Shown here one piece after another: positions 6,703-41,060 of a stretch of 64,000 nt of DNA; positions within the stretch are counted from its first letter, which is position 1, and every line of letters begins with the position of its first letter. This DNA is from Clostridia bacterium. Lineage in GTDB: Bacteria > Bacillota > Clostridia > Saccharofermentanales > UBA5734. The translations under genes and the position numbers were made by a program. The notes beneath the pieces are model-generated. The model was not told the DNA's origin. It was given only the letters and a program-made list of their open reading frames with translations, and made no database searches. The stretch lies in NCBI GenBank assembly GCA_040772725.1, contig JAXGXR010000002.1, forward strand, positions 949,223 to 1,013,222, in the 5' to 3' direction.

Positions 6703-6728
6703 GGTGAAAACCTCCCTGATTTTCGATT

Positions 6729-7706: not shown

Positions 7707-7756
7707 AGAATCATCCTTTCGCGTGTGCCCGGCCATTGGACCGGCTGGTTCGAGGG

Positions 7757-10838: not shown

Positions 10839-10942
10839 ATGCAAATTGTAACAACCGATACGATTCTGAAAGGGGCGAGGAAACAACCGTTTCGACAACT
10901 TCATTTCTGAACTCGACTACAATGCGAAAGAAAAAGGAGAAA

Positions 10943-11941: not shown

Positions 11942-11966
11942 TTTGCGTCAAACGGTAGACTGCCAA

Positions 11967-12012
11967 GGCAAAGCTCGTTCTGGACGCATTCAGCTCCAGA
12001 ACGGGCTTTGCC
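11967..12012 (+). other. intercistronic stem-loop between the SBP and ATPase genes
   Basis: GGCAAAGC-t-CGTTCTGGA / TCCAGAACG-g-GCTTTGCC gives 17 paired bases with a 10-nt loop and no U-tract. Confidence 0.5.
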
Positions 12013-12042
12013 GATGCATCCAGTGCAAAAGGGGCTAGAGAT

Positions 12043-13563: not shown

Positions 13564-14542
13564 TATCCGGCAAGGCAAAAATCCGGTCATGGCGCGGTTC
13601 GGCACGTATGTCAAGGACAACCTTGTCCTCGTGGGCATCATCGTGCTGGTCCTCGTCACGATCATCGTCCAGCCAAACTTCCTGTCCCCGCTGAACATGA
13701 CCAATATCCTGCGCCAGTTCGGCCCCCTGAGCCTGGTGTCACTCGGCATGACTTTCGTCATCCTAGGCGGCTTCATCGATCTTTCCGTCGCGGGCACCTT
13801 CTCGCTGGTGGCGGTCGTCACCATATCATTGATCGATCCGATCGGACAGGTGCCGGCCCTGATCGTCGGCCTGATCATCGGCGCGGCCTGCGGGTATATC
13901 AACAGCCTCCTGTGCCTGACCTCGGGAGCCCTGACACAGGCTGAGGCCCTGTTCATCACTTTCGGCATGCAGCTCGTGTACAGCGCGGTGGCCCTGATCT
14001 ATTGCGGCGGCGCCACCCAGCACATGCGCAATGTCGAAGGTAACAAATCCGTTTTTGAAGCCATTGGATCCGGCATGGTCGGCTTTCTGACGATCACGTT
14101 CATCATTTTCCTGGTCTGTCTCGCGATCCTGTATTTTTTCCAGTCGAAAACCTACATGGGCCGGACGATCAGCCTGACCGGCGGCAACAAGACCGCGGCC
14201 AGGCTTACGGGACTGCCTGTCGAACGCTCGATCATGATCATCTACACCCTGTCAGGACTGATGGCCGGCCTTGGCGGCATCACCCTCTTTTCCCGTGTAA
14301 CCACCGCCTCGCCGGTTCTGGGCGCCGGGTATGAGACAAATGCGATCCTGTCCGTCGTTGTCGGCGGCACGTCCTTGAAAGGTGGCAAAGGCAGTGTCCT
14401 CCGAACCGTTCTCGGCACCCTGCTCATCATCCTCATGTCCAACTGCCTGAATCTGCTGGGTGTCTCACCCTTCATGCAGAACATGGTCAAAGGCTTGATC
14501 CTGGTTGTCGCCATCTGGCTGGACAACCGGAAGCCGCTGTAG
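13547..14542 (+). CDS. sugar ABC transporter permease (RbsC/AraH type)
   Basis: Multi-TM protein. Start placed at ATG 13547 behind GGAGGTGG, overlapping the ATPase gene end. Confidence 0.85.
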   Translation: MQVNTDIRQGKNPVMARFGTYVKDNLVLVGIIVLVLVTIIVQPNFLSPLNMTNILRQFGPLSLVSLGMTFVILGGFIDLSVAGTFSLVAVVTISLIDPIGQVPALIVGLIIGAACGYINSLLCLTSGALTQAEALFITFGMQLVYSAVALIYCGGATQHMRNVEGNKSVFEAIGSGMVGFLTITFIIFLVCLAILYFFQSKTYMGRTISLTGGNKTAARLTGLPVERSIMIIYTLSGLMAGLGGITLFSRVTTASPVLGAGYETNAILSVVVGGTSLKGGKGSVLRTVLGTLLIILMSNCLNLLGVSPFMQNMVKGLILVVAIWLDNRKPL

Positions 14543-14548
14543 GAGGGG

Positions 14549-15520
14549 ATGAGCATGGAAATCAAATCAATGGCCAAGACAGTCGGGAAACTTGCCGTCA
14601 AGCAGAAGGCCACGGTGGCCATCCTCGCCATGCTGGTGCTGATGCTGTTTTTCCCCACCAATTTCTACACAGCCTATAACCTGATCGACCTGCTGAATTC
14701 GTCCGCGATCCTGATCATTCTCGCGGCCGGTGTCAGCATCACGGTCATCGCCGGTGGCTGTGACCTGTCAATCGGCGGTGTCATGGTGACTTCCGGCATC
14801 ATCGCCATCCAGCTGATGCCGAAACTGGGCATGTTCCTGGCGATTCTGATCGCGCTGCTGAGCGGTGTCGTCATCGGATTCGTCAATGGTTTCCTCGTGG
14901 TCCAGCAGAAAACAGAGCCCTTCATCATCACGCTCGGCATGGGCATGCTGCTTAGCGGCTTTGCCCAGCAGCTGACGAACGGGCGGGCTGTCCAAGGCGA
15001 GGTCCCGGCGTACATGCAACTGGCCAACGGACGAATTCTCGGGCAGATCACCAACCTGGTCATCTTCATGATCGTTGTCATTGCCGCCATGCATTACGTG
15101 ATGCGCTACACCACATTCGGTCGCAACTGCTATGCCATCGGTGGTGACTATGAAGTTGCCCGATATTCCGGTATCTCGGTCATTTTCACCAAATGGGCGA
15201 CCTTCCTGATCAGTGGATTCATCGCGGCTTTGGCAGGCGTTCTTCTGTCATCCAAGCTCAATTCGGGATCGTACCTCTACGGTGAGAACATCGCCCTGAT
15301 CGTCAACTGCGGCTGTGTCGTCGGCGGTGTTTCTTTCGCAGGCGGTGTCGGCAGCATTCCGCAGGCTGCGCTGGGCCTCCTGGTGTTCGGCGTCCTGGAG
15401 AATGCCATGAACATGCTGGGCATCAGCTCCTACATCCAGATCCTCCTGAGAGGCATTGTCATCGTCGCGATCATCTGGCTCGACTGCTTTGGCCGGAAAC
15501 GCAAGCGTGAGCTCGTTTAA
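14549..15520 (+). CDS. sugar ABC transporter permease (second RbsC-type subunit)
   Basis: 323 aa, multi-TM, paralogous to the preceding permease. AGGAGGGG RBS. Confidence 0.85.
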   Translation: MSMEIKSMAKTVGKLAVKQKATVAILAMLVLMLFFPTNFYTAYNLIDLLNSSAILIILAAGVSITVIAGGCDLSIGGVMVTSGIIAIQLMPKLGMFLAILIALLSGVVIGFVNGFLVVQQKTEPFIITLGMGMLLSGFAQQLTNGRAVQGEVPAYMQLANGRILGQITNLVIFMIVVIAAMHYVMRYTTFGRNCYAIGGDYEVARYSGISVIFTKWATFLISGFIAALAGVLLSSKLNSGSYLYGENIALIVNCGCVVGGVSFAGGVGSIPQAALGLLVFGVLENAMNMLGISSYIQILLRGIVIVAIIWLDCFGRKRKRELV

Positions 15521-15606: not shown

Positions 15607-16419
15607 TCAGGACGTTTCCGGTTTGTTGGTGAAGGTGACCCGATAGGCCGCTGGCGACAGGGAAGTCATCCGCTTGAAGAGCTTGGCGAAATGCTTGGAA
15701 TCCTCCAGACCGACAAAACTGGAAATGGCGCTGATCTTGCTGTCTGTCTGGACCAGCATTTCCCGTGCGACTTCCATGCGGTACCGGTTCAGATACAGGA
15801 TCGGCGTCGTGCCGAAACGTCGCTTGAACATGCGGTTCAAATAGGAAGGGCTGACGAACATCTCCTGTGAAAGCCGGCCCATGTCGATCGGCTCGGAAAA
15901 ATGCTCCTGGATGAACTGCATGCATTTTTCCGCGATGTTCGCTTTTGGCGCCTGGTATTCATGGGAGATTTTCTGCATCTGGCTGATCAGGAGGTTGATC
16001 AGGTCATTGAGCAACTGCTGCTGATATGGCCCTTCGTGATGGAATTCATGATGGATCTGGCGCATCAGCCAGCGGAGAATCCCCTGTTCATCCTTGAGTT
16101 TGAACAGCCGGTCGAATGGCAACGCGGCCTCGCACGACAAATGCAGGCAGATGACCGCCTGATGGTAACGGGTGTCAAGGTATTCCTGATGCGCCACGTG
16201 AGCCGGATAAACCACCAGTTCAAAGAGCGACAAGGCCATGGTGCGATCCTTGTCCTTGATGTCCGCCTTCCCTTCCAGGAAATAGATCAGCTCGATCAGC
16301 GAATGTTCGTGCCGATTGTAATTCCAGATTCTGCTCTTTTCGTCAAACTGCTCACAGAAGGTGGCCCGGCAGTTGCCGGCATGGAGAGATGCCAGATATG
16401 CGTCAGGCATCTTTGACAT
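15607..16419 (-). CDS. AraC-family transcriptional regulator
   Basis: 270 aa. N-terminal cupin-like sensor and C-terminal double HTH (ISSFVGLEDSKHFAKLFKR). Its start overlaps the upstream gene by 17 nt. Confidence 0.85.
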   Translation of the reverse strand: MSKMPDAYLASLHAGNCRATFCEQFDEKSRIWNYNRHEHSLIELIYFLEGKADIKDKDRTMALSLFELVVYPAHVAHQEYLDTRYHQAVICLHLSCEAALPFDRLFKLKDEQGILRWLMRQIHHEFHHEGPYQQQLLNDLINLLISQMQKISHEYQAPKANIAEKCMQFIQEHFSEPIDMGRLSQEMFVSPSYLNRMFKRRFGTTPILYLNRYRMEVAREMLVQTDSKISAISSFVGLEDSKHFAKLFKRMTSLSPAAYRVTFTNKPETS

Positions 16420-18238
16420 TCCCGAAGTAGATCGCGCCGATCGCCTGGGCGAACTGGGCGACGGTGTAGTCCCTATCGGCCTCCAGCTGTTTCATCAGAC
16501 GAGTATTGGCGATTGACCCGTCGGCGACTTCAAAGACAAGGTCTGGCACGATCGAGCGTGCCCCCTGCTGCATGAGTTCGAAGCAACGCGGATTCTTGAC
16601 CAGACGCCCGAACAGGACCCTCGATTTTGCCTTCGGTTCCAGGATCATCTCCGTCTGCGCGAACGTGACTGCCAGGTATTGCCCGATGTCGATGAAAATC
16701 TGGTCACAGAGTGGATCGTTTTCCCGATCCACCAGGTCCATCAGATACTGCAGAAATGGTTTGCGCTGGTCGATGGGCTCGGTCGGGACCACTCGCTCGA
16801 CCATGCCATCGTGTTCACGAGTGACGATGAAGCCCTTGTCGACCATTTCCCGGTACAAATCAGGCCGCCCCTGCTCGAAATAGCGGATCGCGAGACGGAA
16901 CGCACCGCTCTGGCTGGCGTATTTCTGCAAGGTGCCGGCCAGTCCGGTGTTGAAATTGTTGATACTACGGAGATCGTCACAATGGAACTGTCGCGCGCGA
17001 AAGCTGCCTAGATCGATCACAAAGTTGTACACTTCGAGCGGAATGTCCGGAATCGATCCTGTTTCATCGATCCAGCCGGTTCCCAGTTCCGTGCCGAGCG
17101 TGTGGGCGAACACGCCATCGGCCAACCGGTCGGCCTGATCGGAAAATGCCTGTTCCACGGCTGCAGTGAAGGAGGCCATCGGACCGTCGTTGGTCATACG
17201 GACCTTGCCGTCCGTCTTGCAGAACATCTTCAAGTGGCTGTCCAGATCAGTCAGTTTGGCAAACTCGACTTCATAGTCAATGTCCGGGTTCTCCCGCATG
17301 CCCCGCGTCTTGTACACTTCGCCACCTACGATCTTGTTCTCGACAACGACATCGGGGAAACACAGGCCGATCGCGTCGAAAGCCAGCAGGCGATCGCCGA
17401 GCCTTGATTCGGCATCCAGGATGATTTCTTTCATCCGATCGAGCGGGCACGCTCGTTCCATGGCCTCGTCGAGGACCGGGTCAAGGGACGCTCGCAAGGC
17501 CTGGTCATGAAGATCGAGCTGGGTCAGACGGGCCCGGACGAGCCGAACCAGCAGCAGGATGGGGTCGATCATCTCATGCGCTTCACGGAACTGGGCGGGA
17601 AACCAGTCGTATTCCTTGAAACAGCGGATGTCACGATTGACGCTGGCCGCCACCTTGATGTCCGTTCCGCCGACATCAATGCCAAGAAGAACTTTCCCAT
17701 CAAGGTCGGAGGCTGCGGCGACAAACTTCTGCAAAGCGTTCCCGCTGACTTCATTTCGCGTGGAAGGTGCTTGAAATGCCATTGTCTCCGGCCGTCCCGC
17801 CAGGAAACGGAACCGGTTTCCTCCGTCGGGTCCATGATCGAGATGCTCGAGCATCCGGTCAATGACATTGATGCATTTGCCATAGCCGCTCCGTTTCGCA
17901 CGTGGCTGGTGAATGCAAAACAGTCGGTCCAGCTCGTCAATCAATCCGGAAAGCCAGGGCAGTCGGTCGTCCAGGTCAAGGAATAGCCGGCGCCCACCGA
18001 GGCTGGAAAGGATATTGTAAATGATCGCGCTCACATACGACCGGACAAACAGGACATGCTCCTCTTCAAGGTCCGGATCGCCAGGCAAGGCCAGGTCGAA
18101 CCGCTTGTAACTCCCGTCCAGCCGTTCCAGCGTGAGTGTCAGCATGCTTTGGGGTGACAGACGCGAAAACGCGGCGGCCACATCATGGATGAACACGGGT
18201 TCGTCGGATCTGGCCTTTGCCAGCAAAGAATCGATCAT
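16403..18238 (-). CDS. ASKHA/ROK-like ATPase domain protein with an uncharacterised ~200-aa N-terminal domain
   Basis: LLGIDVGGTDIKVA phosphate-1 motif and GTELGTG phosphate-2-like motif, but no ROK zinc Cys cluster. Start moved to ATG 18238 behind AGGAGG. Confidence 0.6.
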   Translation of the reverse strand: MIDSLLAKARSDEPVFIHDVAAAFSRLSPQSMLTLTLERLDGSYKRFDLALPGDPDLEEEHVLFVRSYVSAIIYNILSSLGGRRLFLDLDDRLPWLSGLIDELDRLFCIHQPRAKRSGYGKCINVIDRMLEHLDHGPDGGNRFRFLAGRPETMAFQAPSTRNEVSGNALQKFVAAASDLDGKVLLGIDVGGTDIKVAASVNRDIRCFKEYDWFPAQFREAHEMIDPILLLVRLVRARLTQLDLHDQALRASLDPVLDEAMERACPLDRMKEIILDAESRLGDRLLAFDAIGLCFPDVVVENKIVGGEVYKTRGMRENPDIDYEVEFAKLTDLDSHLKMFCKTDGKVRMTNDGPMASFTAAVEQAFSDQADRLADGVFAHTLGTELGTGWIDETGSIPDIPLEVYNFVIDLGSFRARQFHCDDLRSINNFNTGLAGTLQKYASQSGAFRLAIRYFEQGRPDLYREMVDKGFIVTREHDGMVERVVPTEPIDQRKPFLQYLMDLVDRENDPLCDQIFIDIGQYLAVTFAQTEMILEPKAKSRVLFGRLVKNPRCFELMQQGARSIVPDLVFEVADGSIANTRLMKQLEADRDYTVAQFAQAIGAIYFGNVKDA

Positions 18239-18522
18239 AGAGCCTGCCTCCTGTACGCATATCCTGGCCTTCGTCCTGATTATCTTCATTCTACCGCACC
18301 GCAGGTGCCTGTGGATAGGATCATTCATTGCCTACAGGTGGACAGAACTGAACTTGCCGACCGTTTTCGGCCCATTTTGAAAGCAGGGGTCGAAACAGGA
18401 CCTTTCTGGTTCAATGGCAGACACCATCAGGCTTTTTTTGGCGGATGACTTCACCACTGGCAGGGGGTAAAATGGAGACAAGGCAATCGGCGCACACCCA
18501 TGGCTTGAACGGAGGGTTTACC

Positions 18523-20916
18523 ATGAAGTCACCTGTCCATTTGAATGATCAGCAAATCGCCAGACTCAACCAGACGCCGCAGACATTGCGGATTGAAACA
18601 TTAAAGCAGAAAATGCTCGATGAGCCACGCTACATGTCGATTGAACAGGCCAGAATCATCACTGCGGTGTATCAGGCCAATCCGGACAAGCCGGTCATCC
18701 TGAAACGCGCGCTTTCTCTTCGGGCTTCGCTCGAGCAGCTTGAGATCGCGATTGAGCCTGAAGAACTGATCGTTGGCAACCGGACACGTGGCGTCCGCGG
18801 CGGTGTCGTGTTCCCGGAGTCGGGCGCTTCCTGGATCGACCGGGAAATCGAAACGTTGCCGACCCGGCCCCAGGACCGGTTCAATGTCCGGCCGGAGGAT
18901 GTGGTCGAGTTCCGTGAAAAGATTTATCCGTACTGGAAAGGCCATTCGCTCGAGGACCGGATTGTCGAGGCGGGTGGGGAAGAGATCAATGCGATCGCCA
19001 AGGTCGTCAAGATCAACCAGAAGGACCACGCGCAGGGTCATATCTGTCCGGATACCGAACTCTGGCTGGAAAAGGGACCGGCCGGCTTGCGCAAACAGGC
19101 TGAAGACCTGATTCAGACCAGTTCGGGCGAGGCGCATGACTTTTACGCCAGTGTCATCGAGGTCCTGACCGGCGCGAGCCGATTCATGGAACGTTACGCT
19201 GAACTGGCGACCGGGATGGCGTCCGATGAAATAAACGCCCCAAACCGGGAAAACCTGCTTGAGGTGGCCAGAATCTGTCATAAATTGGCTTCTGCGCCAC
19301 CGGAGACCTTCCATGAAGCGGTCCAGTCGATGTGGTTCCTGTATGTCATCCTGCACATGGAATCCAATGCCTCGTCATTTTCACCCGGTCGGGCGGACCA
19401 GTACCTTTACCCGTATTATGCGGCGGATCGTGCGTCCGGTCGTCTGGATGACACTCGCGCCCTGGAGATCATCGAGTCCCTCTGGCTGAAATTCAACCAG
19501 ATCGTCTATCTGCGCAATGCGCATAGTGCCAAATACTTCGCTGGTTTCCCCATCGGATTCAACCTGGCGGTCGGCGGACAGCTGGCAGATGGCAACGATG
19601 CGACCAATGAGCTGTCCTACCTGTTCCTGACGGCCCAGGAGCACATCGGTCTGCCACAGCCAAACCTGTCGGCCAGGCTTTACAAGAATTCACCCGAAGC
19701 CTTTGTCCGCCAGTGTGTCCGAGTCGTTGCCAAGGGCAGCGGCATGCCGCAATTCTTCAATGATGAAGCGGTCATACCTGCTCTGATCAATCAGGGGATC
19801 GAGGAGCCGGACGCCAGGGATTATGCCATTGTCGGCTGTGTGGAGTTGACAACCCATGGCAACAACCTCGGCTGGAGCGATGCTGCGATGTTCAACATGC
19901 TCAAGGCTCTGGAACTGACGCTCAACAATGGTGTCTGCCTGGTCAGCGGCGAACGGATCGGACTGCCCCTGGGCGATCTGACCACTTACGCATCCTATGA
20001 AGAGCTGGAAAACGCTTTCCAGAAACAGGTCGACCATTTCATCGACCGGATGGTGAAAAGCTGTGAAGTGGTGGAACGGATGCATCAGGAAGTCCTGCCT
20101 TCACCCTTCTTGTCAACCGTCATTGACGACTGCATGGTGGCCGCGAAGGACGTGACCGCCGGTGGCGCCCAGTACAACCTGTCGGGCATCCAGATCATCC
20201 AGGGTGCCAACATCGCGGACAGTCTGGCAGCTTTGAAAAAACTGGTGTTTGATGAAAACCGCTTTTCGAAAGAGCAGGTGCTGAATGCCCTGCGTGAAAA
20301 CTTTGCCCATGACGAGCCGCTTCGCCTGACCCTGCTCAATCACGCGCCCAAATACGGCAATGACATCGCCTGGGTCGATGATATCGCCAATCACTGGATC
20401 CGCCACTTCAACACCTACCTGAGCCAATATACGAACTACCGTGGCGGTCGCTACCATACGGGTCTCTACACCGTGTCAGCCCATGTCCCGATGGGCCAGA
20501 ACGTCGGCGCCAGCCCGGATGGGCGATTCTCGCGCGAACCGCTGGCCGATGGCGGCATGTCGCCGGTCTATGGTCGTGACATCAAGGGGCCGACCGCCGT
20601 CCTGAAGTCTGTCTCCAAGATCAGCTCCATGTATGGCAGCAATGGGACGTTGCTGAACATGAAGTTCCTGCCGGAATTCTTCACGGAAAGCGGGGTCGAG
20701 AAATTCGCCCTGATGCTGCGGACCTTTGTCGATCTCAAGATCCCGCACATCCAGTTCAATGTCCTGCGTCAGGAGGATCTCCGTGCCGCGCAGAAGGAGC
20801 CGGAGAAATACAGGAACCTCACCGTCCGGGTCGCGGGCTACACCGCCTACTTCACGGAGCTGGCCGGCGATCTTCAGAATGAGATCATCGCCCGCACCAG
20901 CTACGGTGATATCTGA
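18523..20916 (+). CDS. glycyl radical enzyme, PflD/YbiW-like (GRE2)
   Basis: 797 aa. RVAGYTAYF glycyl motif, Cys loop IVGCVELTTHG (Cys codon 19837-19839), and motifs NQKDHAQGH, ESNASSFSPGR, LPQPNL and YTVSAHVPMG. Start at ATG 18523 behind GGAGGG. Confidence 0.9.
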   Translation: MKSPVHLNDQQIARLNQTPQTLRIETLKQKMLDEPRYMSIEQARIITAVYQANPDKPVILKRALSLRASLEQLEIAIEPEELIVGNRTRGVRGGVVFPESGASWIDREIETLPTRPQDRFNVRPEDVVEFREKIYPYWKGHSLEDRIVEAGGEEINAIAKVVKINQKDHAQGHICPDTELWLEKGPAGLRKQAEDLIQTSSGEAHDFYASVIEVLTGASRFMERYAELATGMASDEINAPNRENLLEVARICHKLASAPPETFHEAVQSMWFLYVILHMESNASSFSPGRADQYLYPYYAADRASGRLDDTRALEIIESLWLKFNQIVYLRNAHSAKYFAGFPIGFNLAVGGQLADGNDATNELSYLFLTAQEHIGLPQPNLSARLYKNSPEAFVRQCVRVVAKGSGMPQFFNDEAVIPALINQGIEEPDARDYAIVGCVELTTHGNNLGWSDAAMFNMLKALELTLNNGVCLVSGERIGLPLGDLTTYASYEELENAFQKQVDHFIDRMVKSCEVVERMHQEVLPSPFLSTVIDDCMVAAKDVTAGGAQYNLSGIQIIQGANIADSLAALKKLVFDENRFSKEQVLNALRENFAHDEPLRLTLLNHAPKYGNDIAWVDDIANHWIRHFNTYLSQYTNYRGGRYHTGLYTVSAHVPMGQNVGASPDGRFSREPLADGGMSPVYGRDIKGPTAVLKSVSKISSMYGSNGTLLNMKFLPEFFTESGVEKFALMLRTFVDLKIPHIQFNVLRQEDLRAAQKEPEKYRNLTVRVAGYTAYFTELAGDLQNEIIARTSYGDI

Positions 20917-21944
20917 TGGCAGCCGACCAGGCGGCCAAACCCGTGCAGGAGGCCGGACGGTCCCGGTCGGACATCGACTGGGACCGCCGAGGTCTGGTTT
21001 TTGATATCCGTCGGTTTTCCACGCATGACGGACCCGGCATCCGGACATCGGTTTTCACCAAGGGCTGTCCGCTTCGGTGCCTCTGGTGCCAGAACCCGGA
21101 AGGGATCGAACTGAAGCGCAATTTGTTCTATTTCCGTGAAAAGTGTATCGGCTGCGGGACCTGTGTCGCCCATTGCCCGCAAAAGGCGATCCGGAAAGTG
21201 GACGACAAGATCGCCATCGACCGATCGCTGTGCGATCTGTGCGGCATCTGTGTCGATGTCTGCCCGCCCCAGGCCCTGAGCTTTGATTCGCGGGAGATGA
21301 CGGTACGCGAGGTCGTGAACGAGGTGCTGCTCGACCGGCCGTTCTATCGCGATAACGGTGGATTGACGATCACGGGCGGGGATCCGGTGGTCCAGCATGC
21401 GTTCAATGTCCAGGTCCTCAAGGCGTGCCGGTCTTACGGCATCCACACGGCGATCGAAACGAGCCTTTTTGCGGACCGGAACGTGCTCGAGTCACTTCTG
21501 CCGCACATCAACCTGCTGATCGCGGATTTCAAGGTGTTTGACGAACAGGACCATCTGGCCTGGACCGGCGTGTCCAATGACCGGATCAAGCGCAACTTCG
21601 AATGGATCATTTTGCGTATGAGACAGATGCGGGAGCAGAAAGGACAGCGTGCCGGCCATCAGACACCCGATCCGGAACTGCTGGTCCGGATTCCCATGAT
21701 CCCCGGCCACAACACCACTTTGGAAAACCTTCGTCAGACCGGCGCCTATTTTTACCGGCTTGACCCGACAACCCGGATCGAATTGCTGAATTACAATCCT
21801 CTGGCCATGAACAAATATGTCCTTCTGGAACAGCCCTACCTGTTTGACCAGAATCCCAGAATGTTCACGCAGGAAGAAATGGCTGATTTTGTCCTGGCCT
21901 TGCGGGAAACGGGTGTGGTGGCGTTCGCCGAACCATCCCGTTGA
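20916..21944 (+). CDS. glycyl-radical enzyme activating protein (radical SAM)
   Basis: CPLRCLWC (CX3CX2C) plus two ferredoxin motifs, CIGCGTCVAHCP and CDLCGICVDVCP. ATGA overlap with the GRE2 stop. Confidence 0.9.
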   Translation: MAADQAAKPVQEAGRSRSDIDWDRRGLVFDIRRFSTHDGPGIRTSVFTKGCPLRCLWCQNPEGIELKRNLFYFREKCIGCGTCVAHCPQKAIRKVDDKIAIDRSLCDLCGICVDVCPPQALSFDSREMTVREVVNEVLLDRPFYRDNGGLTITGGDPVVQHAFNVQVLKACRSYGIHTAIETSLFADRNVLESLLPHINLLIADFKVFDEQDHLAWTGVSNDRIKRNFEWIILRMRQMREQKGQRAGHQTPDPELLVRIPMIPGHNTTLENLRQTGAYFYRLDPTTRIELLNYNPLAMNKYVLLEQPYLFDQNPRMFTQEEMADFVLALRETGVVAFAEPSR

Positions 21945-21974: not shown

Positions 21975-22712
21975 TCAGCAGGGAACGGTGATCAACTCGA
22001 TTCCATATCCGCTGATGACTTTGCGTGCGCTTTCCGGGATGCATTCGTCGGTGATGATGACGCTGACCTCGGAGAGAGACAGTTGCTTGGCAACACCCCG
22101 CATGCTGAACTTGCCGGAATCCGTGAGGATGATCGCCTTGTTCGCCCGCTGGGCCATCGCATAGGCGACCTCGGCGCGCTGGAGGTTGATGCAGGTGAAT
22201 CCATCCTCGGAAAAACCATCCGAACCGATGAACACCTTGTCGACAAAAAAGGACTGCAGGGACTGTCGTGTGAGTGGGCCGACGCAAACCTCGGACTCCG
22301 GCTGAAAATCGCCGCCGAGCAGGATGACTTTTGCCCGGGGGTGTTCACGGATGAAACTGGCAATGAAACAGGAGTTGGTGACGATCGTGACATCCTTGCT
22401 CTCGGCGAGTGCCTTGGCAAGCAACGCATTGGTCGAGCCGGACTCGATCAGGATCGTTTCACCCGATTCCACCATCTGGGCTGCCCGTTCCGCGATCCGC
22501 TGCTTGATTTCAAAATTGGAGTGCAATCGATTGGCGACACGTTCAGCCGAGGCGCCACCATGGACTCGCCGGATCAGACCATGCTGCTGCAATGCTTTGA
22601 GGTCACTACGGATCGTCACCTGGGAGACATTGTACTTCAAGGCCAGCTCTGATACAGTTAATTTGTCATTTTCTGACAGGTCCTTGAGGATTTGCATGCG
22701 TCGCTCATTCAT
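21975..22712 (-). CDS. DeoR-family transcriptional regulator
   Basis: 245 aa. N-terminal HTH (LTVSELALKYNVSQVTIRSDLKAL) and a C-terminal DeoR sugar-phosphate-sensor domain. Divergent from GRE3. Confidence 0.9.
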   Translation of the reverse strand: MNERRMQILKDLSENDKLTVSELALKYNVSQVTIRSDLKALQQHGLIRRVHGGASAERVANRLHSNFEIKQRIAERAAQMVESGETILIESGSTNALLAKALAESKDVTIVTNSCFIASFIREHPRAKVILLGGDFQPESEVCVGPLTRQSLQSFFVDKVFIGSDGFSEDGFTCINLQRAEVAYAMAQRANKAIILTDSGKFSMRGVAKQLSLSEVSVIITDECIPESARKVISGYGIELITVPC

Positions 22713-22791
22713 TTGATGTCACACTCCTGTTGATTAACGGATTGAAGACACCCCGTTATGGTTCTTTTGTTTAAAATTATAACTGTTTTTA

Positions 22792-22820
22792 TTGAAAGTG
22801 TATAGCATTTCGATTAAAAT
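22792..22820 (+). promoter_or_regulatory. putative promoter for the GRE3 operon
   Basis: TTGAAA, 17 nt spacer, TAAAAT in an AT-rich divergent region. An AAAATG-N9-CATTTT inverted repeat follows immediately downstream and may be an operator. Confidence 0.45.
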
Positions 22821-22945
22821 CAAAATGACTTATTTGCATTTTAACCCGTGTTGGTTGAAAATGGTCTGCAAACATAGATATCAGGCGTTTCACGATCTGA
22901 AAGCCGCTGTCCCCTGTCTTGTCTTCAAGGGTTGAAGGTGAAAGA

Positions 22946-25297
22946 ATGCTGGAAAGAATCGAAAGTCTCAGAAAATTTGTCATGGAAAGCCCGCGCCAGG
23001 TGTCTCTGGAGCGCGCACTGATCCACAAGGAATCCATGGAGGCCTCCGCCGGTCTGCCGGAGATCATCCGGCGCGCCATGTCATTTGGCCACATGGTGTC
23101 AAAATTCGAGATCGCGATCCATCCCGGTGAACTGATTGTCGGCGGGAGAACGGCCAATCCAAGGGCCGGAGTCGTGTCGGCCGGCCTGGGGGCCGACTGG
23201 CTGATGGAAGAACTGGACACGATCGCGACACGTGCGGTCGATCCGTTCCAGATCAGCCCGGCACAAAAACAGCTTTTCCGTGATGTGCTTTATCCGTATC
23301 ACAAAGGTCATGACATGCGGTCACGGATCGAGGCGGATCTGTCCGATGAGCAGAAAGCGGCCCGGGATGCCGGGATTTTTCGCCTCAACCAGACTGACAA
23401 GGGGCAGGGGCACATCCTGCCCGATTATTCGATTCTCCTGAAGCAGGGGATCGGACAGATGATCGAGGCCATGTCGGCCCTCCTGGGAGACCATCCGGAC
23501 AACACATTCTACAAGGCGACCCTGATCTGCTATCGAGGATTCCAGCACCTGATCGACCGATATGCCCGGCTGGCAGCCGATCAGGCTGATCATGAACCGG
23601 ATCCGGCGCGAAAGGCAGAGCTGAGGACCATCGCCGTCAACCTGAAATCCATCCGGGAAGCGCCGCCGGCAGATTTTCATCAGGCCTTGCAGCTTTTCTG
23701 GCTGACTTGTGTCGCGCTTCAACTCGAGTCCAATGCCAGTTCAATCTCGATCGGCCGTTTTGACCAGTTCATGCTACCCTATTTCCAGAAGGATATCGAA
23801 GAGGACCGGCTGAGTTTCGAACAGGCGCATCTGCTGCTGTCCTGCCTCTGGATCAAGATGAACGAGGTCATCATGATCCGCAGTGAGGACAGCGCCCGCT
23901 ATTTCGGCGGCTTTCCGACCGGATACAACATGGTTCTGGGCGGGATCACCAGCGACGGGTGGGACGGGACCAACGCGCTCAGCTATCTTTGCCTGGAGAT
24001 CACGAATGATCTTCGCCTGCCTCAGCCAAACCTGTCGGTCCGGGTCCACGCGAGCACCCCGACTTCGTTCTTGAAAAAGTCGTCCGAACTGGTGGCACAG
24101 GGATTTGGCATGCCCCAGATTTTCAACGATGATACGATCATCGAGACGCTGGTCAAGGAAGGAGTCAATCGGGAGGACGCCAAAGATTACGCGATTGTCG
24201 GCTGTGTCCAGCTGTCCATACCCGGCAAGATGTATGGCATGCCCGATGTCGCCCTTTTCAACCTGTTGAAATGCCTGGAGCTGGTGATTCACAGGGGGCT
24301 GGATCCGATCACCGGATCCACGATGCCGGTCGAGCTGGTGGATGGCCATGAGAGTCGATTTGAAAACTTCGAACAATCCGTGATGGAAACGGTGCGGCAC
24401 TATGTCCGTCAGGCCTGCCTCGGTGCGAATGTCGTTGACCGGGCACACCAGGACCTGGCCCAGGTGCCGCTGTTGTCGACCCTGATGACGGGATGCGCTG
24501 AAAGCGGCCGGGACATGACAGCAGGCGGGACCCGCTACAACTTCACCGGCCTTCAGCAGACCGGCATCGCCAATCTGGCCGATGCCATGCTCGTGATCCG
24601 CTCCGTGGTGTTTGAACAGCGGCGGATGACACTCGCTCAGTTGAGCCGTATCCTGCTGGACAACTACGCCGGGCATGAATCGATCCGACAGTCATTTATC
24701 GAAGACTACCCCAAGTACGGCAACAACATTGATGCGGTCGACACATTGGCGAACCGTTATCTGAAAAAATTCTGCGAGTTTGTATCGGCCAACACCAATC
24801 CGAGGGGTGGTCGGTTCTCGCCCGGCAGCTACACGGTGTCGGCCCACATCCCGATGGGGAAGAAGGTGGGGGCGACCCCGGATGGCCGCATGACCGGCAC
24901 AAAACTGGCGGATGGGGGACTGGCGCCCAGTGCCGGCCGGGATCTGCTGGGTCCGGTTTCGCTACTCAAGACGGTCAGTCGTCTGGACAGCGAGCTCTTG
25001 TCAAACGGCAGTCTGCTCAACATGCGGTTCAGCCGCGCCTCGTTTGTCGAGGCGGACAGTTTCGACCGATTCTTCCGGCTGATCAAGCTGTTCATCAAAC
25101 TCAAGCTCCTGCATATCCAGTTCAGTGTGGTGGATGAATCGTACCTGCGGGACGCCCAGACGCATCCAGAAAAGTATCCTGAACTCATGGTCAGGGTCGC
25201 CGGGTACACGGCCTATTTCAAGGACCTGGGCCGGGAGGTCCAGGATGACATCATCGACCGTTGCGCGAACAATATGGAGTTGAATGCGGATGAGTGA
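22946..25297 (+). CDS. glycyl radical enzyme, PflD/YbiW-like with a variant Cys loop (GRE3)
   Basis: 783 aa. RVAGYTAYF (Gly codon 25202-25204), and motifs LNQTDKGQGH, LESNASSISIGRFDQ, ARYFGGFPTGY and YTVSAHIPMG. The Cys loop reads IVGCVQLSIPGK, with Gln where the family normally has Glu. Confidence 0.9.
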   Translation: MLERIESLRKFVMESPRQVSLERALIHKESMEASAGLPEIIRRAMSFGHMVSKFEIAIHPGELIVGGRTANPRAGVVSAGLGADWLMEELDTIATRAVDPFQISPAQKQLFRDVLYPYHKGHDMRSRIEADLSDEQKAARDAGIFRLNQTDKGQGHILPDYSILLKQGIGQMIEAMSALLGDHPDNTFYKATLICYRGFQHLIDRYARLAADQADHEPDPARKAELRTIAVNLKSIREAPPADFHQALQLFWLTCVALQLESNASSISIGRFDQFMLPYFQKDIEEDRLSFEQAHLLLSCLWIKMNEVIMIRSEDSARYFGGFPTGYNMVLGGITSDGWDGTNALSYLCLEITNDLRLPQPNLSVRVHASTPTSFLKKSSELVAQGFGMPQIFNDDTIIETLVKEGVNREDAKDYAIVGCVQLSIPGKMYGMPDVALFNLLKCLELVIHRGLDPITGSTMPVELVDGHESRFENFEQSVMETVRHYVRQACLGANVVDRAHQDLAQVPLLSTLMTGCAESGRDMTAGGTRYNFTGLQQTGIANLADAMLVIRSVVFEQRRMTLAQLSRILLDNYAGHESIRQSFIEDYPKYGNNIDAVDTLANRYLKKFCEFVSANTNPRGGRFSPGSYTVSAHIPMGKKVGATPDGRMTGTKLADGGLAPSAGRDLLGPVSLLKTVSRLDSELLSNGSLLNMRFSRASFVEADSFDRFFRLIKLFIKLKLLHIQFSVVDESYLRDAQTHPEKYPELMVRVAGYTAYFKDLGREVQDDIIDRCANNMELNADE

Positions 25298-26234
25298 GTT
25301 GACGCCCGAACAAAGGAACACCTATCTGGCGACACGAGGCATCGTGTTCAATATCCAGCGCTTCAGCATTCACGATGGCCCGGGCATCCGGACAATCGTG
25401 TTCATCAAGGGTTGCCCCCTGCGCTGCCAGTGGTGTTCCAACCCCGAATCACAGGATCCGAAGCCTGTCCTCATGTTCTCACAGAAAAAATGCATCAGCT
25501 GTGGCCTGTGTGAAAAAGCCTGCCCGCTGGACGCGATCTCTTTTGTCGACAGTCCTTATCCGAAAATTGATCGCAGCATTTGCGACAACTGCGGCAAATG
25601 CGCCGAAGTCTGCTGCACGGAAGCGCTCTATATGGAAGGCAAAAGCATGTCGGTCGAGGAGGCCATGACAGAGGTCATGAAGGACAAACCCTTCTATGAC
25701 AATTCGGGCGGCGGACTGACCCTTTCCGGTGGCGAAACCCTTGCCCAGCCAAATTTCGCTCACGCGCTCCTGGCGATCGCCAAAGACCGGGGCCTTCATA
25801 CGGCTGCGGAAACGACCGGCTTTGCCCAGCCGGAGGTCCTGAAAAAAATCGTATCCAAATTGGACTTGGTCCTTTATGACTTCAAGCATGTCGATCCGGT
25901 CCGACACCTCGAAAAGACCGGGGTCGACAATACACAGATTCTTGAAAACCTGAAAATGCTGTGCGAGATGAAAGTCCCTCTGGTCGTGCGCATTCCGATC
26001 ATCCCGGGATTCAATGACGCGCTTTCAGATGCCGCTGAATTCGGTCGCCTGCTCAGTGAACTGAAAGTTGAAGAAGTCAATCTGCTTCCGTTCCACCAGA
26101 TGGGAGAGCACAAATACGAACTGCTTGGCAAACCCTATGCTTACAAGGGTGTCAAGAGCCTGCGCGAAGAGAGCCTTGTCGAGTACCGCCAGATCATGGC
26201 CGATTTTGATCTCGACGTCAAAATTGGTGGCTGA
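25284..26234 (+). CDS. glycyl-radical enzyme activating protein (radical SAM)
   Basis: 316 aa. CPLRCQWC plus CISCGLCEKACP and CDNCGKCAEVC motifs. Overlaps the GRE3 end. Confidence 0.9.
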   Translation: MRMSELTPEQRNTYLATRGIVFNIQRFSIHDGPGIRTIVFIKGCPLRCQWCSNPESQDPKPVLMFSQKKCISCGLCEKACPLDAISFVDSPYPKIDRSICDNCGKCAEVCCTEALYMEGKSMSVEEAMTEVMKDKPFYDNSGGGLTLSGGETLAQPNFAHALLAIAKDRGLHTAAETTGFAQPEVLKKIVSKLDLVLYDFKHVDPVRHLEKTGVDNTQILENLKMLCEMKVPLVVRIPIIPGFNDALSDAAEFGRLLSELKVEEVNLLPFHQMGEHKYELLGKPYAYKGVKSLREESLVEYRQIMADFDLDVKIGG

Positions 26235-26335
26235 ATGAATTTTTTATGAAGAATGGAACTTTTTCCGTGCCATGACGTCTCATAACCAAATACGTGTGAT
26301 GCACCGTATGGATATATGACAGAAAGGTGATGACC

Positions 26336-27055
26336 ATGAAAAAATTATCGATCATAATCCTGGTGCTGGCTGTCCTGACGGCTGTGGCCGGCTGCGGATC
26401 CGCCGCGACCACGACGGCCGCGACCACGACAGCGGCAACAACGACAACTGCAACAACGACGACGGCTGCGACTACCGCGCCGACGACCGCAGGGACAACA
26501 CAGCCGACTACAACCCCGACAACAGCCCCGACCACGCAGCCATCCCAGACGACGACTCCGACGACGACCGTTGAGCCGACCCCGACAACCGTGGTCCATC
26601 CGGTCTACCAGGACACAATCGAGATCGAAGGCATGGAAGAGACGGTCAACTACCGTTTGACAGAGGGCCGTTATGATTATGCGATGCCGATGGATATCGA
26701 CCGCTTCCTGTTCCGCGAAGGGGAGGAGGCCGACTTCTTCCGCAGCATTGCGAACGATTTGGTGTTCCTGACAGTCACCTACATCGAGGACACGGACAAT
26801 CAGACAGAGACCGCGATCCGGACCAATGTCGCCGAGGGGATCACCGCGACGGCCAGCACCGGAAAACTCGGTGAACATGATGCCGCGATTGTCCATGTCA
26901 CCTATGGGGATCAGCCGGACAGCAAGGTCATGGATTTCTTCCTGATCGAGGATGACGGCGGGGTCTATGAGATCAACCTGGTGTATACGATCGCGACTGC
27001 TGAAGGCTTTGGCGCTCGCATGTCAGCCATGGCCGAGGGTTTCGTCATCCGCTGA
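26336..27055 (+). CDS. lipoprotein with a long Thr/Ala/Pro-rich linker, unknown function
   Basis: Signal peptide and lipobox (LTAVAGC), about 75 aa of T/A/P low-complexity linker, then a ~150-aa globular domain with no motif I recognise. Start is ambiguous (GTG 26327, ATG 26330 or ATG 26336). Confidence 0.7.
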   Translation: MKKLSIIILVLAVLTAVAGCGSAATTTAATTTAATTTTATTTTAATTAPTTAGTTQPTTTPTTAPTTQPSQTTTPTTTVEPTPTTVVHPVYQDTIEIEGMEETVNYRLTEGRYDYAMPMDIDRFLFREGEEADFFRSIANDLVFLTVTYIEDTDNQTETAIRTNVAEGITATASTGKLGEHDAAIVHVTYGDQPDSKVMDFFLIEDDGGVYEINLVYTIATAEGFGARMSAMAEGFVIR

Positions 27056-29204: not shown

Positions 29205-30448
29205 TGCTGGGTGCCGCTCTGGCCCAGTTGCCGGGGATCAAGGCCGCCAAGGACATGAATGTCACCGTCATCACCTGTGACAATCAGCCTGAATCGGTCG
29301 GGCATGCGTTCGCGGATCATGTGGCCTACGCCAGCACATTCGATCCGGATGGTGTTTATCGTGCGGCTCAAATGTATGCGATCGATGGAATCATGACCAT
29401 GGGTTCTGACCAACCGGTCCTGACAGCCGCCCTGGTCGCCCGGAAAATGGGCCTGCCGTCCGCGCTTGATGTGCCAACTGCCCGCTCGGTCACCGACAAG
29501 CGGGTGATGAAGCGACGATTCACCCGGCTGGGCATTCCGACGGTGCCCTACCTGATCTATCGGCAAAACGAAGCGGAGTTGCGCCGCTTTACGTCCTGGC
29601 CGGTTGTCGTCAAGCCGGTCGACTCACAAGGCCAGCGGGGTGTCTTTCTGCTGGATTCGCCGGAAGCGGTCCTCGCACGCGTCAATGATGTGCTTGCTTT
29701 CAGCCGGGTCGATGAGATCCTGGTCGAATCATACTATCCGAGCGATGAGGTCACGGTCAGTGGCTGGGTCCGGGATGGCCAGGCGACGGTGCTGGCGATT
29801 ACAGATCGTGTCACCTTTTCCGAACGGGAACGGATCGGGATCTGTCTGGCCCATGATCTGCCTTCAAAGCATCTGGCCAGGCATGGCGAAGACCTGATCG
29901 CCCTCACACATGATATCGTTTCCGGGTTTGGCATCCGGAACGGACCGGTCTATTTCCAATTCCTGATCGGGGCGGACGGGATCAAGGTCAACGAGATCGC
30001 CTGCCGGATCGGCGGGGCATTCGAGTCCCAATTCCTTCCACAGGTGACGGGTTTTGACCTGACGAAAGTCCAGGTGCAATCCGTACTCGGCATGGCAACG
30101 GGCGTAAACAACTGGGATGCGCTTGGCCGGTTCGATGTCCGGTCCGACCGGCACTTCCTGTCCGTGCAATTGTTTTTTGCTGAGCCGTGCACCATCGGCA
30201 GTCTGACCCCGCTTGAGGAAATCCTGGCTTTGGATGGCGTACTGGACGCTGGATATCATAAAAGCTGCGGACAAACCATCCGGGACATCAGCGACGCGAC
30301 TGCCCGAGTCGGGTACTGCATTGTGACCGGAGATTCGCAAAAACAAGTGGATAGAAGGGTGGACCGGTTATATCAGGTGCTGGCGGTCCGCGACACAGAC
30401 GGCTACAACCGACTGATCCATCAACCACGACGGGAGGTGTCAGCATGA
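29192..30448 (+). CDS. ATP-grasp domain ligase
   Basis: Start at ATG 29192 behind GGGAGG. ATP-grasp-like motifs WPVVVKPVDSQGQRGVF, ILVESYY and VNEIACRIGG. Confidence 0.75.
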   Translation: MRLMMLGAALAQLPGIKAAKDMNVTVITCDNQPESVGHAFADHVAYASTFDPDGVYRAAQMYAIDGIMTMGSDQPVLTAALVARKMGLPSALDVPTARSVTDKRVMKRRFTRLGIPTVPYLIYRQNEAELRRFTSWPVVVKPVDSQGQRGVFLLDSPEAVLARVNDVLAFSRVDEILVESYYPSDEVTVSGWVRDGQATVLAITDRVTFSERERIGICLAHDLPSKHLARHGEDLIALTHDIVSGFGIRNGPVYFQFLIGADGIKVNEIACRIGGAFESQFLPQVTGFDLTKVQVQSVLGMATGVNNWDALGRFDVRSDRHFLSVQLFFAEPCTIGSLTPLEEILALDGVLDAGYHKSCGQTIRDISDATARVGYCIVTGDSQKQVDRRVDRLYQVLAVRDTDGYNRLIHQPRREVSA

Positions 30449-31431
30449 ACGGCAGGCGGTCTTTCATCCCACCGGGAATCCGCATGGCCGTCCTGGCTCT
30501 GCTCGTTTTCGTGACCGCGTTGATTGGTGGATGTGGTCAGCCAGAAGGGGTCGACATCATTGTCGCCGAACAATATGGCCTGGCCTACGCGCCGATTCAG
30601 ATCATGAAGGAGAAGGGCTTTCTGGAGCAGGCGCTTGCCAAGAGGACTGGCGTCAATCAACCGGTGTCCGTCAACTGGGTCAAACTGGCGAACACGGCCG
30701 CGATCCGGGAAGCCATGCTGGCCGATTCACTGGATGTGGCATTCGTCGGGATCCCGCCTTTCCTGATTGGCTTGGACCAGGGCATGCCCTGGAAGATGAT
30801 CACCGGGCTGTCGGAGTGCCCGCTGGACCTGATGGTTCACGAATCGTCCGTGCCTGACTTTCAATCGCTGGTCGGTGCGGGGAAGATCGCACTGCCGCAG
30901 CCGGGCAGCATCCAGCACATCCTGCTGGCGATGGCCGCTGAGAAGCAATTGGGCGATGCCTCGATTTTTGACCGCCAGCTGGTCTCGATGAAGCACCCGG
31001 ACGGGATGCAAGCCCTGCTTTCCGGTCAGGACATTGTGGCACACTTCACCGCGCCGCCGTATAATTTCATGGAATCGGAAACAGTTGGATTTCGATCGGT
31101 TCTGACTGGTGAAGCGGCAATGGGGGAACCATTCAGTTTCATTGTCGGCATCGCTCAGCCCGCTCTTTACGAGGACAAGATCCGAATTGAGGCTTTCATG
31201 GAAGCACTAGACCAATCATTCGCTTTCATCGACGAAAACCGGGACGAAACAGTAGCCTTGCTGGCTGCCAGCTTTGAGCTCAGTCCGGAACAGACCGAGG
31301 AATTTTTGTTCGAACGCGGTATCAGATTCGGACCGGAGATTCGCGGCACGTCCGCATTCAGTACGTTCATGACCCGGACAGGTTACATAGGAAGGCAGTA
31401 CGATGTTGAAGAACTGGTATGGCAAGGATAA
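30445..31431 (+). CDS. ABC substrate-binding lipoprotein, NMT1/THI5 (NitT/TauT) type
   Basis: Signal peptide plus lipobox (LIGGC). SsuA/NMT1-like fold pattern. ATGA-type overlap with the ATP-grasp gene. Confidence 0.7.
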   Translation: MNGRRSFIPPGIRMAVLALLVFVTALIGGCGQPEGVDIIVAEQYGLAYAPIQIMKEKGFLEQALAKRTGVNQPVSVNWVKLANTAAIREAMLADSLDVAFVGIPPFLIGLDQGMPWKMITGLSECPLDLMVHESSVPDFQSLVGAGKIALPQPGSIQHILLAMAAEKQLGDASIFDRQLVSMKHPDGMQALLSGQDIVAHFTAPPYNFMESETVGFRSVLTGEAAMGEPFSFIVGIAQPALYEDKIRIEAFMEALDQSFAFIDENRDETVALLAASFELSPEQTEEFLFERGIRFGPEIRGTSAFSTFMTRTGYIGRQYDVEELVWQG

Positions 31432-32170
31432 CGCGGCAAATCGCAGCGTTGGCCGCCAACTGATCTGGCTGGCCATCATCATCGCAATATGGGAGCTGGC
31501 AGCCAGGCTCAAGCTGGTCAACCCGCTGATCCTGCCGAGCGCGTCAGCGGTCCTTGTCCGGATGGTCACCGGCCTATGGGAAGGCACACTTGCCCTGCAG
31601 CTGCTTCAATCGATCGGCCTTGTCCTGGCCGGACTGGTGGTCGGCAGCCTGATTGGATTCATGTTAGCGTGCCTCGATTATTTCCTGCCATTCACCCGGC
31701 CGCTGATCACTCTGCTCAATGCCATGTTCCATCCGTTGCCGGGTGTCGCGATTCTGCCGTTGGTCCTGGCCATAGCCGGCCTTGGCCTGAAGTCTGTTTT
31801 CATTGTGATCCTGCATGCGGTTGTCTGGTCTACCTATTTGAACCTGTCGACCGGATTTCGCTCCGTCGATCCGGACTACATCGACGCGGCGCTCAATGTC
31901 GGCGTGAACAGTTGGCAGCTGGTCTGGCACATCCTGCTGCCGGTCAGCGGTCATCATGTTGTGACCGGGCTGAAAATCGGCTGGTCACGAGGATGGCGTG
32001 CCCTGATCAGCGCCGAGATGGTGTTCAGCGCGATCGGCGCGCTGGGAGGCATCGGCTGGTACTTGTTTGAAAGACGAGCCTTCATGGACACAACAGGGTT
32101 ATATGCGGGTATCTGCCTGGTCATTCTGACCGGCGTCCTCATGGAAAACATCCTGTTCAATCGCTCCTAG
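31403..32170 (+). CDS. ABC transporter permease, NitT/TauT family
   Basis: 255 aa, 6 TM, with the binding-protein-dependent transport EAA-like region. Overlaps the SBP gene by 29 nt. No ATPase gene follows. Confidence 0.8.
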   Translation: MLKNWYGKDNAANRSVGRQLIWLAIIIAIWELAARLKLVNPLILPSASAVLVRMVTGLWEGTLALQLLQSIGLVLAGLVVGSLIGFMLACLDYFLPFTRPLITLLNAMFHPLPGVAILPLVLAIAGLGLKSVFIVILHAVVWSTYLNLSTGFRSVDPDYIDAALNVGVNSWQLVWHILLPVSGHHVVTGLKIGWSRGWRALISAEMVFSAIGALGGIGWYLFERRAFMDTTGLYAGICLVILTGVLMENILFNRS

Positions 32171-35871: not shown

Positions 35872-36089
35872 ATTGTTTGTTCCTCCTGAAAATAGCATAT
35901 GATGGTAACACTGTTCCCATCATATCACAAATCGTTTAATTGTCACCTGTCTCAGTGTTCAATGAGGGGGCAAAATTGCCTAAATAACGTAAACGATTGC
36001 ATCTGTTTTGCGGTCAAGAGAGAAAAGCATGTGTCGTCCTGGTTGCCACGTATGATAAAATCAGGGAAACACAAAAGGCAGGACAGGGT

Positions 36090-41010: not shown

Positions 41011-41060
41011 AAGTACCCTACCTCTTATTCGTGTGCTTTTGATTAATGGTGTTGACAGTC

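Follow-up and report, generated by a model that had tools for sequence, protein, structure and literature searches.

We analysed 64,000 nucleotides of contig JAXGXR010000002.1 from a Clostridia bacterium (hereafter the window), a stretch that encodes three glycyl radical enzymes (GREs), referred to as GRE1, GRE2 and GRE3. Our subject is GRE3, whose gene carries, read directly and in frame, the codons TGT GTC CAG for Cys420-Val421-Gln422, and thus a glutamine two residues after the radical-carrying cysteine, at the usual place of the catalytic glutamate. In sequence alignments Cys420 coincides with Cys431 of the PflD structure 8ID0 and with Cys433 of glycerol dehydratase (GDH), and Gln422 with Glu433 of 8ID0 and Glu435 of GDH (1R8W). 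The unusual triplet had been pointed out in the original prediction, together with the GCVE motifs of GRE1 and GRE2, the intact Gly753 of GRE3, an activase of its own (ACT3) and a divergent regulator of the DeoR family; all these features were confirmed (Table 1).

The gene of GRE3 is intact (open reading frame 22919/22946-25297, forward strand) and from the ATG at 22946 it specifies 783 amino acids. This ATG is the likely start, judging from the ribosome-binding site AAGGTGA on its 5' side and from the orthologues of GRE3, which likewise begin with MLERI. In the region between the genes of DeoR and GRE3, putative divergent promoter-like hexamers, which are consensus matches only, overlap at 22792-22820 on the forward and 22804-22776 on the reverse strand. 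The same region contains a direct repeat, TTTTGTTTAAAATTATAA / TTTCGATTAAAATCAAAA, at 22765 and 22808, which at the level of consensus evidence could be a candidate DeoR operator.

Table 1. Features of the GRE3 locus in the window and related loci that carry the GCVQ motif
Feature	Position	Strand	Remarks
GRE3 coding sequence	22946-25297	+	PFL2/PflD branch, GCVQ clade; Pfam, TIGR01774, AlphaFold2
Radical-carrying Cys420, Gln422 at the usual place of the catalytic Glu	24203-24211	+	codons; alignment
Cys hairpin, residues 416-439, GIVGCVQLSIPGKMYGMPDVALFN	24191-24262	+	PflD counterpart AVVGCVELSIPGKTYGLHDIAMFN
His156 in the motif NQTDKGQGH	23411-23413	+	equivalent to GDH His164 by alignment with 1R8W; invariant in the clade
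Glycyl radical fingerprint RVAGY, Arg750-Tyr754	25193-25207	+	Gly753 at 25202-25204; invariant in 14/14 clade members
DeoR-GRE3 intergenic region, AT-rich	22713-22945	.	promoter-like hexamers, TTTnGnTTAAAAT repeats, GRE3 ribosome-binding site
ACT3, radical-SAM GRE-activating enzyme	25284-26234	+	14-nt overlap of its start with the GRE3 stop
DeoR-family regulator, divergent from GRE3	21975-22712	-	Pfam HTH_DeoR and DeoRC
GRE1, YbiW orthologue, GCVE (C435/E437)	8093-10504	-	940 bits to YbiW 8ID7/8YJN
Genes 3' of GRE1	5890-8038	-	Dabb 7757-8038; ROK sugar kinase 6729-7760; shikimate-dehydrogenase (SDH)-like oxidoreductase 5890-6702
Monosaccharide-type ABC importer	10922-15520	+	binding protein, ATPase, two permeases
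GRE2, GCVE (C465/E467)	18445-20916	+	third PflD-like lineage
Conserved 614-641-aa protein	16403-18328	-	L001 13348-15222, L002 7163-9007, L010 7458-9338
L001 (L004 is the same contig)			GCVQ locus; Oscillospiraceae metagenome-assembled genome (MAG)
L002 / L003			GCVQ loci; related contigs
L005			GCVQ locus; Eubacteriales MAG from a lake project
L006			GCVQ locus; sediment
L007 / L008			GCVQ loci; JGI metagenomes
L009			GCVQ locus; related contig
L010			GCVQ locus; related contig
L013 / L014			GCVQ loci; hydrocarbon-associated metagenomes

Family and fold of GRE3

GRE3 matches the Pfam families PFL-like (PF02901, 637 bits) and Gly_radical (PF01228, 74.5 bits), and it passes the model of the PFL2/glycerol-dehydratase subfamily, TIGR01774, with 799.3 bits at a cut-off of 678.2. 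Its best model is the PflD equivalog NF007437/PRK09983, but the 858 bits obtained stay under the cut-off of 1109; indoleacetate decarboxylase and HPAD, two decarboxylase models, gave 353 and 294 bits, respectively. The nearest solved structures are those of PflD from E. coli (8YJO, 739 bits) and Streptococcus dysgalactiae (8ID0, 701 bits), the latter bound to 1,5-anhydromannitol-6-phosphate (AM6P), with approximately 42-46% identity, while YbiW is a distant relative (423 bits). An AlphaFold2 model (pLDDT 87.2, pTM 0.90) predicts the ten-stranded barrel fold of GREs, and Foldseek returned 8YJO and 8ID0 as its best matches (TM 0.93-0.95). The pLDDT of this model drops below 50 at residues 630-633 (24833-24844), in the TVSA segment of a strand lining the active site, which may reflect ordering that depends on the substrate or conflicting signals from a mixed alignment.

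In a neighbour-joining tree the sequences with GCVQ are monophyletic in 100/100 bootstraps, on a long stem, and no other sequences join the clade that they make up with canonical PflD, likewise in 100/100 bootstraps. In 79/100 bootstraps the PflD sequences are monophyletic to the exclusion of the GCVQ group; next outside branches the GRE2 lineage, and GRE1 falls elsewhere in the tree. The relationships recovered from the sequences thus place the GCVQ group beside PflD as a sister group that is small and had not been described before, and GRE3 is not nested within PflD. The description of GRE3 as strongly PflD-like stands insofar as PflD is its nearest characterised relative, but at the above level of identity and as a member of a sister clade GRE3 is not an orthologue of PflD.

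Conservation of the GCVQ motif

The homologues were collected by searching 5.8 billion protein clusters with GRE3. All 14 cluster representatives that are at least 60% identical to GRE3 possess GCVQ followed by PGKMYGMP, the two exceptions being one sequence with C for Y and one with S for G. Below this clade the identity falls to 48% or less, and all 105 sequences of the PflD clade have GCVE followed by PGKTYGLH. In 8 independent assemblies beyond the window the glutamine is encoded by CAG or CAA, and the flanking codons are rich in synonymous differences. Pairwise dN/dS between GRE3 and its orthologues, rough as these values are owing to saturation of dS, is 0.05-0.15, in the same range as for GRE1, GRE2 and ACT3. 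Across the GCVQ clade the Gly loop, Cys420, His156, Asp434 and many further positions are invariant.

The clade is rare in exact-pattern scans: the hairpin GCVQ...PGKMYGMP was found in 2 of 185,579 species genomes and in one metagenome contig. A profile search of 1.84 billion representatives clustered at 50% identity did not return the clade as a representative of its own and yielded no intermediates; the top match (867 bits) has GCVE, and the PflD cluster seems to be represented there by a fragment of 566 aa. Among 150 diverged PFL2-type representatives, taken from clusters at 50% identity, about 80% have Glu two residues after the cysteine and about 20% do not. Three uncharacterised representatives in this set, unrelated to PflD, have Gln at that position (GCTQ, GCVQ and GCMQ), so departures from CXE are not unheard of in sequence space. 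Our literature searches found no description of the GCVQ motif, no departure from CXE in the PflD/YbiW branch, and no work joining anhydrofructose with GREs.

In two diverged GRE representatives, P0255 and P0250, the radical site reads RVSTY and RVATW and so lacks the glycine. They are reminiscent of the aminoacyl radical enzymes, which have been described recently.

The Cys hairpin and the pocket

GRE3 shares with PflD the motifs NQTDKGQGH, ESNASSxSxGRFDQ and GSYTVSAH, an Asp at position +14 from the cysteine and the RVAGY loop. PflD has 293 positions with an invariance of at least 95%. In the GCVQ clade 198 of them are occupied by the same, fixed residue, whereas 20 have been switched to another fixed residue. 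Five of these 20 switches (E422Q, T429M, L432M, H433P and I435V) fall within the 24 residues of the Cys hairpin (odds ratio 6.2, p=0.0055); further fixed switches include D107Q, E296L, A321G, T387F, E396D, S534T, G538Q, L637M, K694R and N727S. The hairpin of GRE3, GCVQLSIPGKMYGMPD, hence deviates from the PflD signature GCVE...PGK/R-TYGLHD, TYGLH being replaced by MYGMP. The Thr, Leu and His of the latter signature are fixed in 104-105 of the 105 PflD sequences, which come from several phyla, and all three are replaced in the GCVQ clade.

The active-site residues of GDH we take to be N156, H164, H281/S282, Y339, C433, E435, D447 and Y640; these letters do occur at the respective positions of the 1R8W chain, and their mapping onto GRE3 was made by alignment. 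By this mapping GRE3 has retained His156 (His164 of GDH), Asp434 (Asp447) and Tyr629 (Tyr640). On the other hand, conserved residues have disappeared from the GCVQ clade, namely three acidic ones (D107Q, E296L and E422Q) and one histidine (H433P), and when a compensating base was sought among acidic or His residues newly acquired by the clade, S123D was the sole gain. The combination of retained GDH- and PflD-type motifs with an altered hairpin suggests a pocket that is largely PflD-like, yet specifically remodelled around the reacting end. The invariance of the hairpin replacements, in turn, points to selection for a specific new pocket.

Genomic neighbourhood

ACT3 scores 358.8 bits on TIGR02494 (cut-off 174) and possesses a CX3CX2C motif (C44/C48/C51) and two ferredoxin-type CX2CX2C motifs. 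An orthologue of ACT3 adjoins the GCVQ gene on its 3' side in every locus examined, including L013, although in L014 it is truncated. GRE1 has no activase of its own and is a conserved partner of GRE3 and ACT3: it is adjacent and divergent to GRE3 in L005, L009 and L013/14, and lies 6-12 kb away in L001 and in the window. The most persistent partners of GRE3 are, apart from this activase-less GRE1, the small Dabb protein, the ROK kinase, the SDH-like oxidoreductase, the DeoR regulator and the ABC importer. GRE1 heads a conserved operon, whose order GRE1-Dabb-ROK-SDH-like is the same in L001 and L013/14; a DeoR orthologue is found next to GRE3 or GRE1 in L001, L002/3, L007/8 and L013/14; and the importer immediately precedes the GCVQ gene in L001 and L010, and is close to it in L002, L007/8 and L013. 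This core persists even in the most distant subclade (L005, L009 and L013/14, approximately 60% identity), where GRE1-Dabb(-ROK-SDH) divergently adjoins GRE3-ACT3. The suggestion of the original prediction that GCVQ might mark a sub-clade with a conserved neighbourhood is thereby borne out, the clade being monophyletic and its module shared.

An adjacent dedicated activase and, in some loci, DeoR-type regulation are seen with PflD as well. However, the canonical PflD loci of Firmicutes that we compared, L011 (Caloramator) and L012, contain components of the phosphotransferase system (PTS), and L011 also an FSA-type aldolase (TAL_FSA), in agreement with the published pathway (PMC12441222). Neither PTS components nor any aldolase were found in the GCVQ loci within the regions seen, which have the ABC importer and the ROK kinase instead. 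The module thus suggests a variant pathway for anhydro-sugars, in which two GREs would share one activase and which would do without PTS or FSA-type aldolase. Because GRE3 scores under the equivalog cut-off, branches outside the PflD clade and differs from PflD in the hairpin signature, in the CXE motif of GRE eliminases and isomerases and in its neighbourhood, which lacks PTS uptake and the aldolase, it should not, on these comparisons, be filed as PflD.

Oxidoreductases of the Gfo/Idh/MocA family flank GRE3 and ACT3 in L007 (10532-11527, reverse strand) and L013 (13528-14571, reverse strand), and two of them precede PflD in the Caloramator locus L011 (4329-5372 and 8940-9986, forward strand). 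Their best matches in the PDB are 2HO5 for the gene of L007 and the C-glycoside 3-oxidase DgpA (7XR9, 126 bits) for that of L013. We considered them as shared 1,5-anhydrofructose reductases and rejected this assignment: the genes of L007 and L013 are not mutually orthologous and the reductase 2GLX ranks only in the middle of the matches.

Other genes of the window

GRE2 and its own activase occupy 18445-21944 on the forward strand, and the hairpin of GRE2 reads THGNNLGWSD. The GRE2 reading frame of the window encodes 823 aa and extends about 30 residues further at its N-terminus than the orthologues (788-797 aa), so that translation probably begins at an internal ATG. A second module, often located near the GCVQ gene, comprises the protein of 614-641 aa, GRE2 with its activase, and an AraC regulator; it is absent from L013 and therefore does not belong to the core. 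The 614-641-aa protein, which always stands beside the AraC regulator and the GRE2/activase pair, has no match in Pfam and no meaningful match in the PDB, and shows weak similarity to designed repeat proteins.

On the 3' side of ACT3 lies an open reading frame of 242 aa (26327-27055, forward strand) with no family match and no counterpart in the related loci; it could be a gene particular to this lineage or a spurious one. An rve-type integrase at 50212-51489 and a DDE transposase at 52780-54009 (forward strand) point to insertion sequences in the window's right half. Sulfur-related genes are clustered at 30445-32170 (forward), 34939-35898 (reverse) and 39739-43822 (reverse), and comprise SsuA/TauC-like components of a sulfonate ABC transporter, a rhodanese, a sulfur-transport protein of PF04143 and a second ABC system of the NMT1/OpuAC type. 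They are unrelated to the GRE locus, but deserve mention in an anaerobe with three GREs.

Reaction and substrate of GRE3

All characterised GRE eliminases, i.e. glycerol and propanediol dehydratases, HypD, CutC, IslA/IseG and HpsG, as well as the isomerases YbiW, PflD and HplG, keep the CXE motif, whose Glu forms a hydrogen bond to a substrate hydroxyl or deprotonates it (PMC13450708), in line with the role of base that the original prediction had assigned to it in the eliminases. In 8ID0, Glu433 is hydrogen-bonded to the C2 hydroxyl and is the base that triggers ring opening (PMC13450708). PflD and YbiW are C-O lyases of AM6P and 1,5-anhydroglucitol-6-phosphate (AG6P), respectively, and divide between them these two C2 epimers in E. 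coli (PMC13450708; PMC12441222). Replacement of the Glu by Gln abolishes the activity of CutC (E491Q) and HypD (E440Q) (PMC7079210). The only characterised enzyme we found with Gln in the Cys loop is the phenylacetate decarboxylase PhdB, which lies outside the PflD clade, so that GCVQ is not a common variant among characterised enzymes of this clade. PhdB naturally has Cys482-x-Gln484; its variants Q484E, Q484A and Q484L are inactive or nearly so, and its authors concluded that Gln484 is neither acid nor base (PMC7079210).

GRE3 has the same fold and the same activase system as the 1,2-eliminases, and likewise the Cys and Gly loops, and it keeps the equivalents of GDH His164 and Asp447, but in place of the Glu that these enzymes use as a base it has Gln. 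With PhdB it shares the Gln, which in PhdB is essential and cannot be replaced by Glu, but PhdB is assigned to a different GRE branch and decarboxylates an aromatic carboxylate; the low scores of GRE3 on the decarboxylase models argue against its affiliation with PhdB or the arylacetate decarboxylases. Since the Glu-to-Gln change is deleterious in CutC and HypD, whereas PhdB is dependent on its natural Gln and does not tolerate Glu, a natural Gln signals a different catalytic strategy. The fixation of Gln422, with the concomitant loss of Thr and His and the gain of two Met and one Pro in the hairpin, is best read as adaptation to another feature of the substrate or to another strategy, and not as a neutral change that is tolerated.

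We consider it somewhat probable that GRE3 is a functional GRE, working as a radical lyase or isomerase of the PflD type on a substrate similar to anhydro-hexitol-6-phosphate by an altered chemistry in which the Glu has been permanently replaced by Gln. ACT3 would install the radical on Gly753, and probably would also activate the activase-less GRE1. From Gly753 the radical would move to Cys420, which would take a hydrogen atom from a phosphorylated sugar, imported by the adjacent ABC transporter and phosphorylated by the ROK kinase under the control of DeoR. His156 and Asp434, both retained, might help the leaving group to depart, while Gln422 would bind and orient the substrate by hydrogen bonds without being a base, a role that has been put forward for Gln484 in PhdB. 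With much of what sets PflD apart from the diol dehydratases kept, and the hairpin that contacts the reacting carbon changed (E422Q, T429M, L432M, H433P), we infer a substrate that differs from anhydro-hexitol-6-phosphates at the carbon facing residue 422, and that either has there a group which needs no deprotonation, or has a leaving group that is intrinsically good or assisted by acid.

Other explanations of Gln422 were weighed against the one above. The original prediction had allowed for a wrong base call and for an inactive paralogue. One G-to-C change suffices to turn Glu into Gln, but an erroneous reading or assembly of GAG, or a mutation confined to one strain, is ruled out by the presence of Gln in 14/14 representatives and, encoded by CAG as well as CAA, in 8 assemblies from different projects; because of this agreement we treat the Gln as no base-call event and assign the error a negligible probability. 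If GRE3 were catalytically dead, and were kept, for example, to assist GRE1 in a structural or regulatory role or to divert the activase as a decoy, the disappearance of the canonical base would be accounted for, and so would the somewhat faster evolution of GRE3 relative to GRE1 (72% versus 89% amino acid identity between the window and L001). However, a pseudogene or decaying paralogue is ruled out by dN/dS of at most 0.15 and by the invariant catalytic motifs (the Gly fingerprint, Cys420, His156 and Asp434); the replacements in the hairpin are themselves invariant, and translational coupling links the activase to GRE3 throughout, not to GRE1. Given this purifying selection, conservation throughout the clade and constant partnership, an enzyme without activity is very improbable.

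A stronger competitor, although in our view rather unlikely, is that GRE3 is isofunctional with PflD and converts AM6P, or an epimer close to it, to 1-deoxyfructose-6-phosphate by opening its ring. The Glu would then be unnecessary, or its part would be played by water, Asp434, His156 or the phosphate of the substrate, and an acid "pull" on the ring oxygen would suffice. The sister relationship to PflD and the many PflD-specific motifs agree with this, as does the pairing of YbiW-type GRE1 with GRE3 under one activase, which mirrors the AG6P/AM6P split of E. coli (PMC13450708; PMC12441222). Gfo/Idh/MocA genes accompany the gene pair in L007/8 and L013 and also occur at the Caloramator PflD locus, but the flanking genes are not orthologous to one another. 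PTS (L011, L012) and FSA aldolase (L011) occur at PflD loci and neither of them at GCVQ loci. Moreover, the Glu-to-Gln substitution kills CutC and HypD, and the replacement of all of the Thr, Leu and His that are invariant in the PflD hairpin argues for a changed pocket and not for a single tolerated swap. A specific sub-case of the altered chemistry proposed above is a PhdB-like or other reaction on an anionic substrate, for instance a sugar acid, or an ester that has a good leaving group, where Gln would avoid charge repulsion and decarboxylation or base-independent beta-elimination would take place. The precedent of PhdB, in which an essential Cys-x-Gln acts on a carboxylate, speaks for it, and so do the losses D107Q, E296L, E422Q and H433P together with K694R in the GCVQ clade, D107 and E296 being judged from sequence position only. 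We regard it as improbable: kinship with decarboxylases is at the family level only (353 and 294 bits versus 858 for PflD), and the neighbourhood provides uptake of neutral sugars and a sugar kinase, with nothing specific to acids.

Several points nevertheless weigh against a functional GRE3 with altered chemistry. The likeness of its module to the YbiW/PflD pair of E. coli, to which GRE1, as the YbiW orthologue, and GRE3 appear analogous, favours the rival view of a simple processing of AM6P. The 64 kb of the window encode no aldolase, such as the expected product would call for. The ligand contacts of the switched residues, with reference to 8ID0, were derived solely by alignment to the GDH positions, the tree is a neighbour-joining and not a maximum likelihood one, and the saturation of dS blurs the estimate of selection.

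A more far-reaching proposal, which we advance tentatively and hold to be less probable than its opposite, is that the GCVQ clade is the first GRE group of the eliminase/isomerase branch to work without the Cys-loop Glu, that it may catalyse a type of reaction new for GREs (for example base-independent radical elimination of a good leaving group, acid-only ring opening or radical epimerisation) on a phosphorylated anhydro-sugar or a related carbohydrate, and that it would provide the second enzyme of a pathway with two GREs and one activase in environmental Clostridia.

Conclusions

The Glu of the CXE motif is treated as a hallmark of the characterised GRE eliminases and isomerases and is used to predict function from sequence. 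GRE3 and its relatives present a Gln that is naturally fixed and selectively maintained at this position, inside a branch recently tied to "anhydroglycolysis" through YbiW and PflD. GRE3 therefore offers a clonable test case for asking whether base catalysis is obligatory for radical C-O cleavage and what else the scaffold is capable of. Its neighbourhood points to a variant pathway of anhydro-sugar utilization, with an ABC importer, a ROK kinase and two GREs for one activase, and without PTS and FSA aldolase. Such a pathway in Clostridia of sediment and soil would extend a chemistry that is known mainly from gut bacteria.

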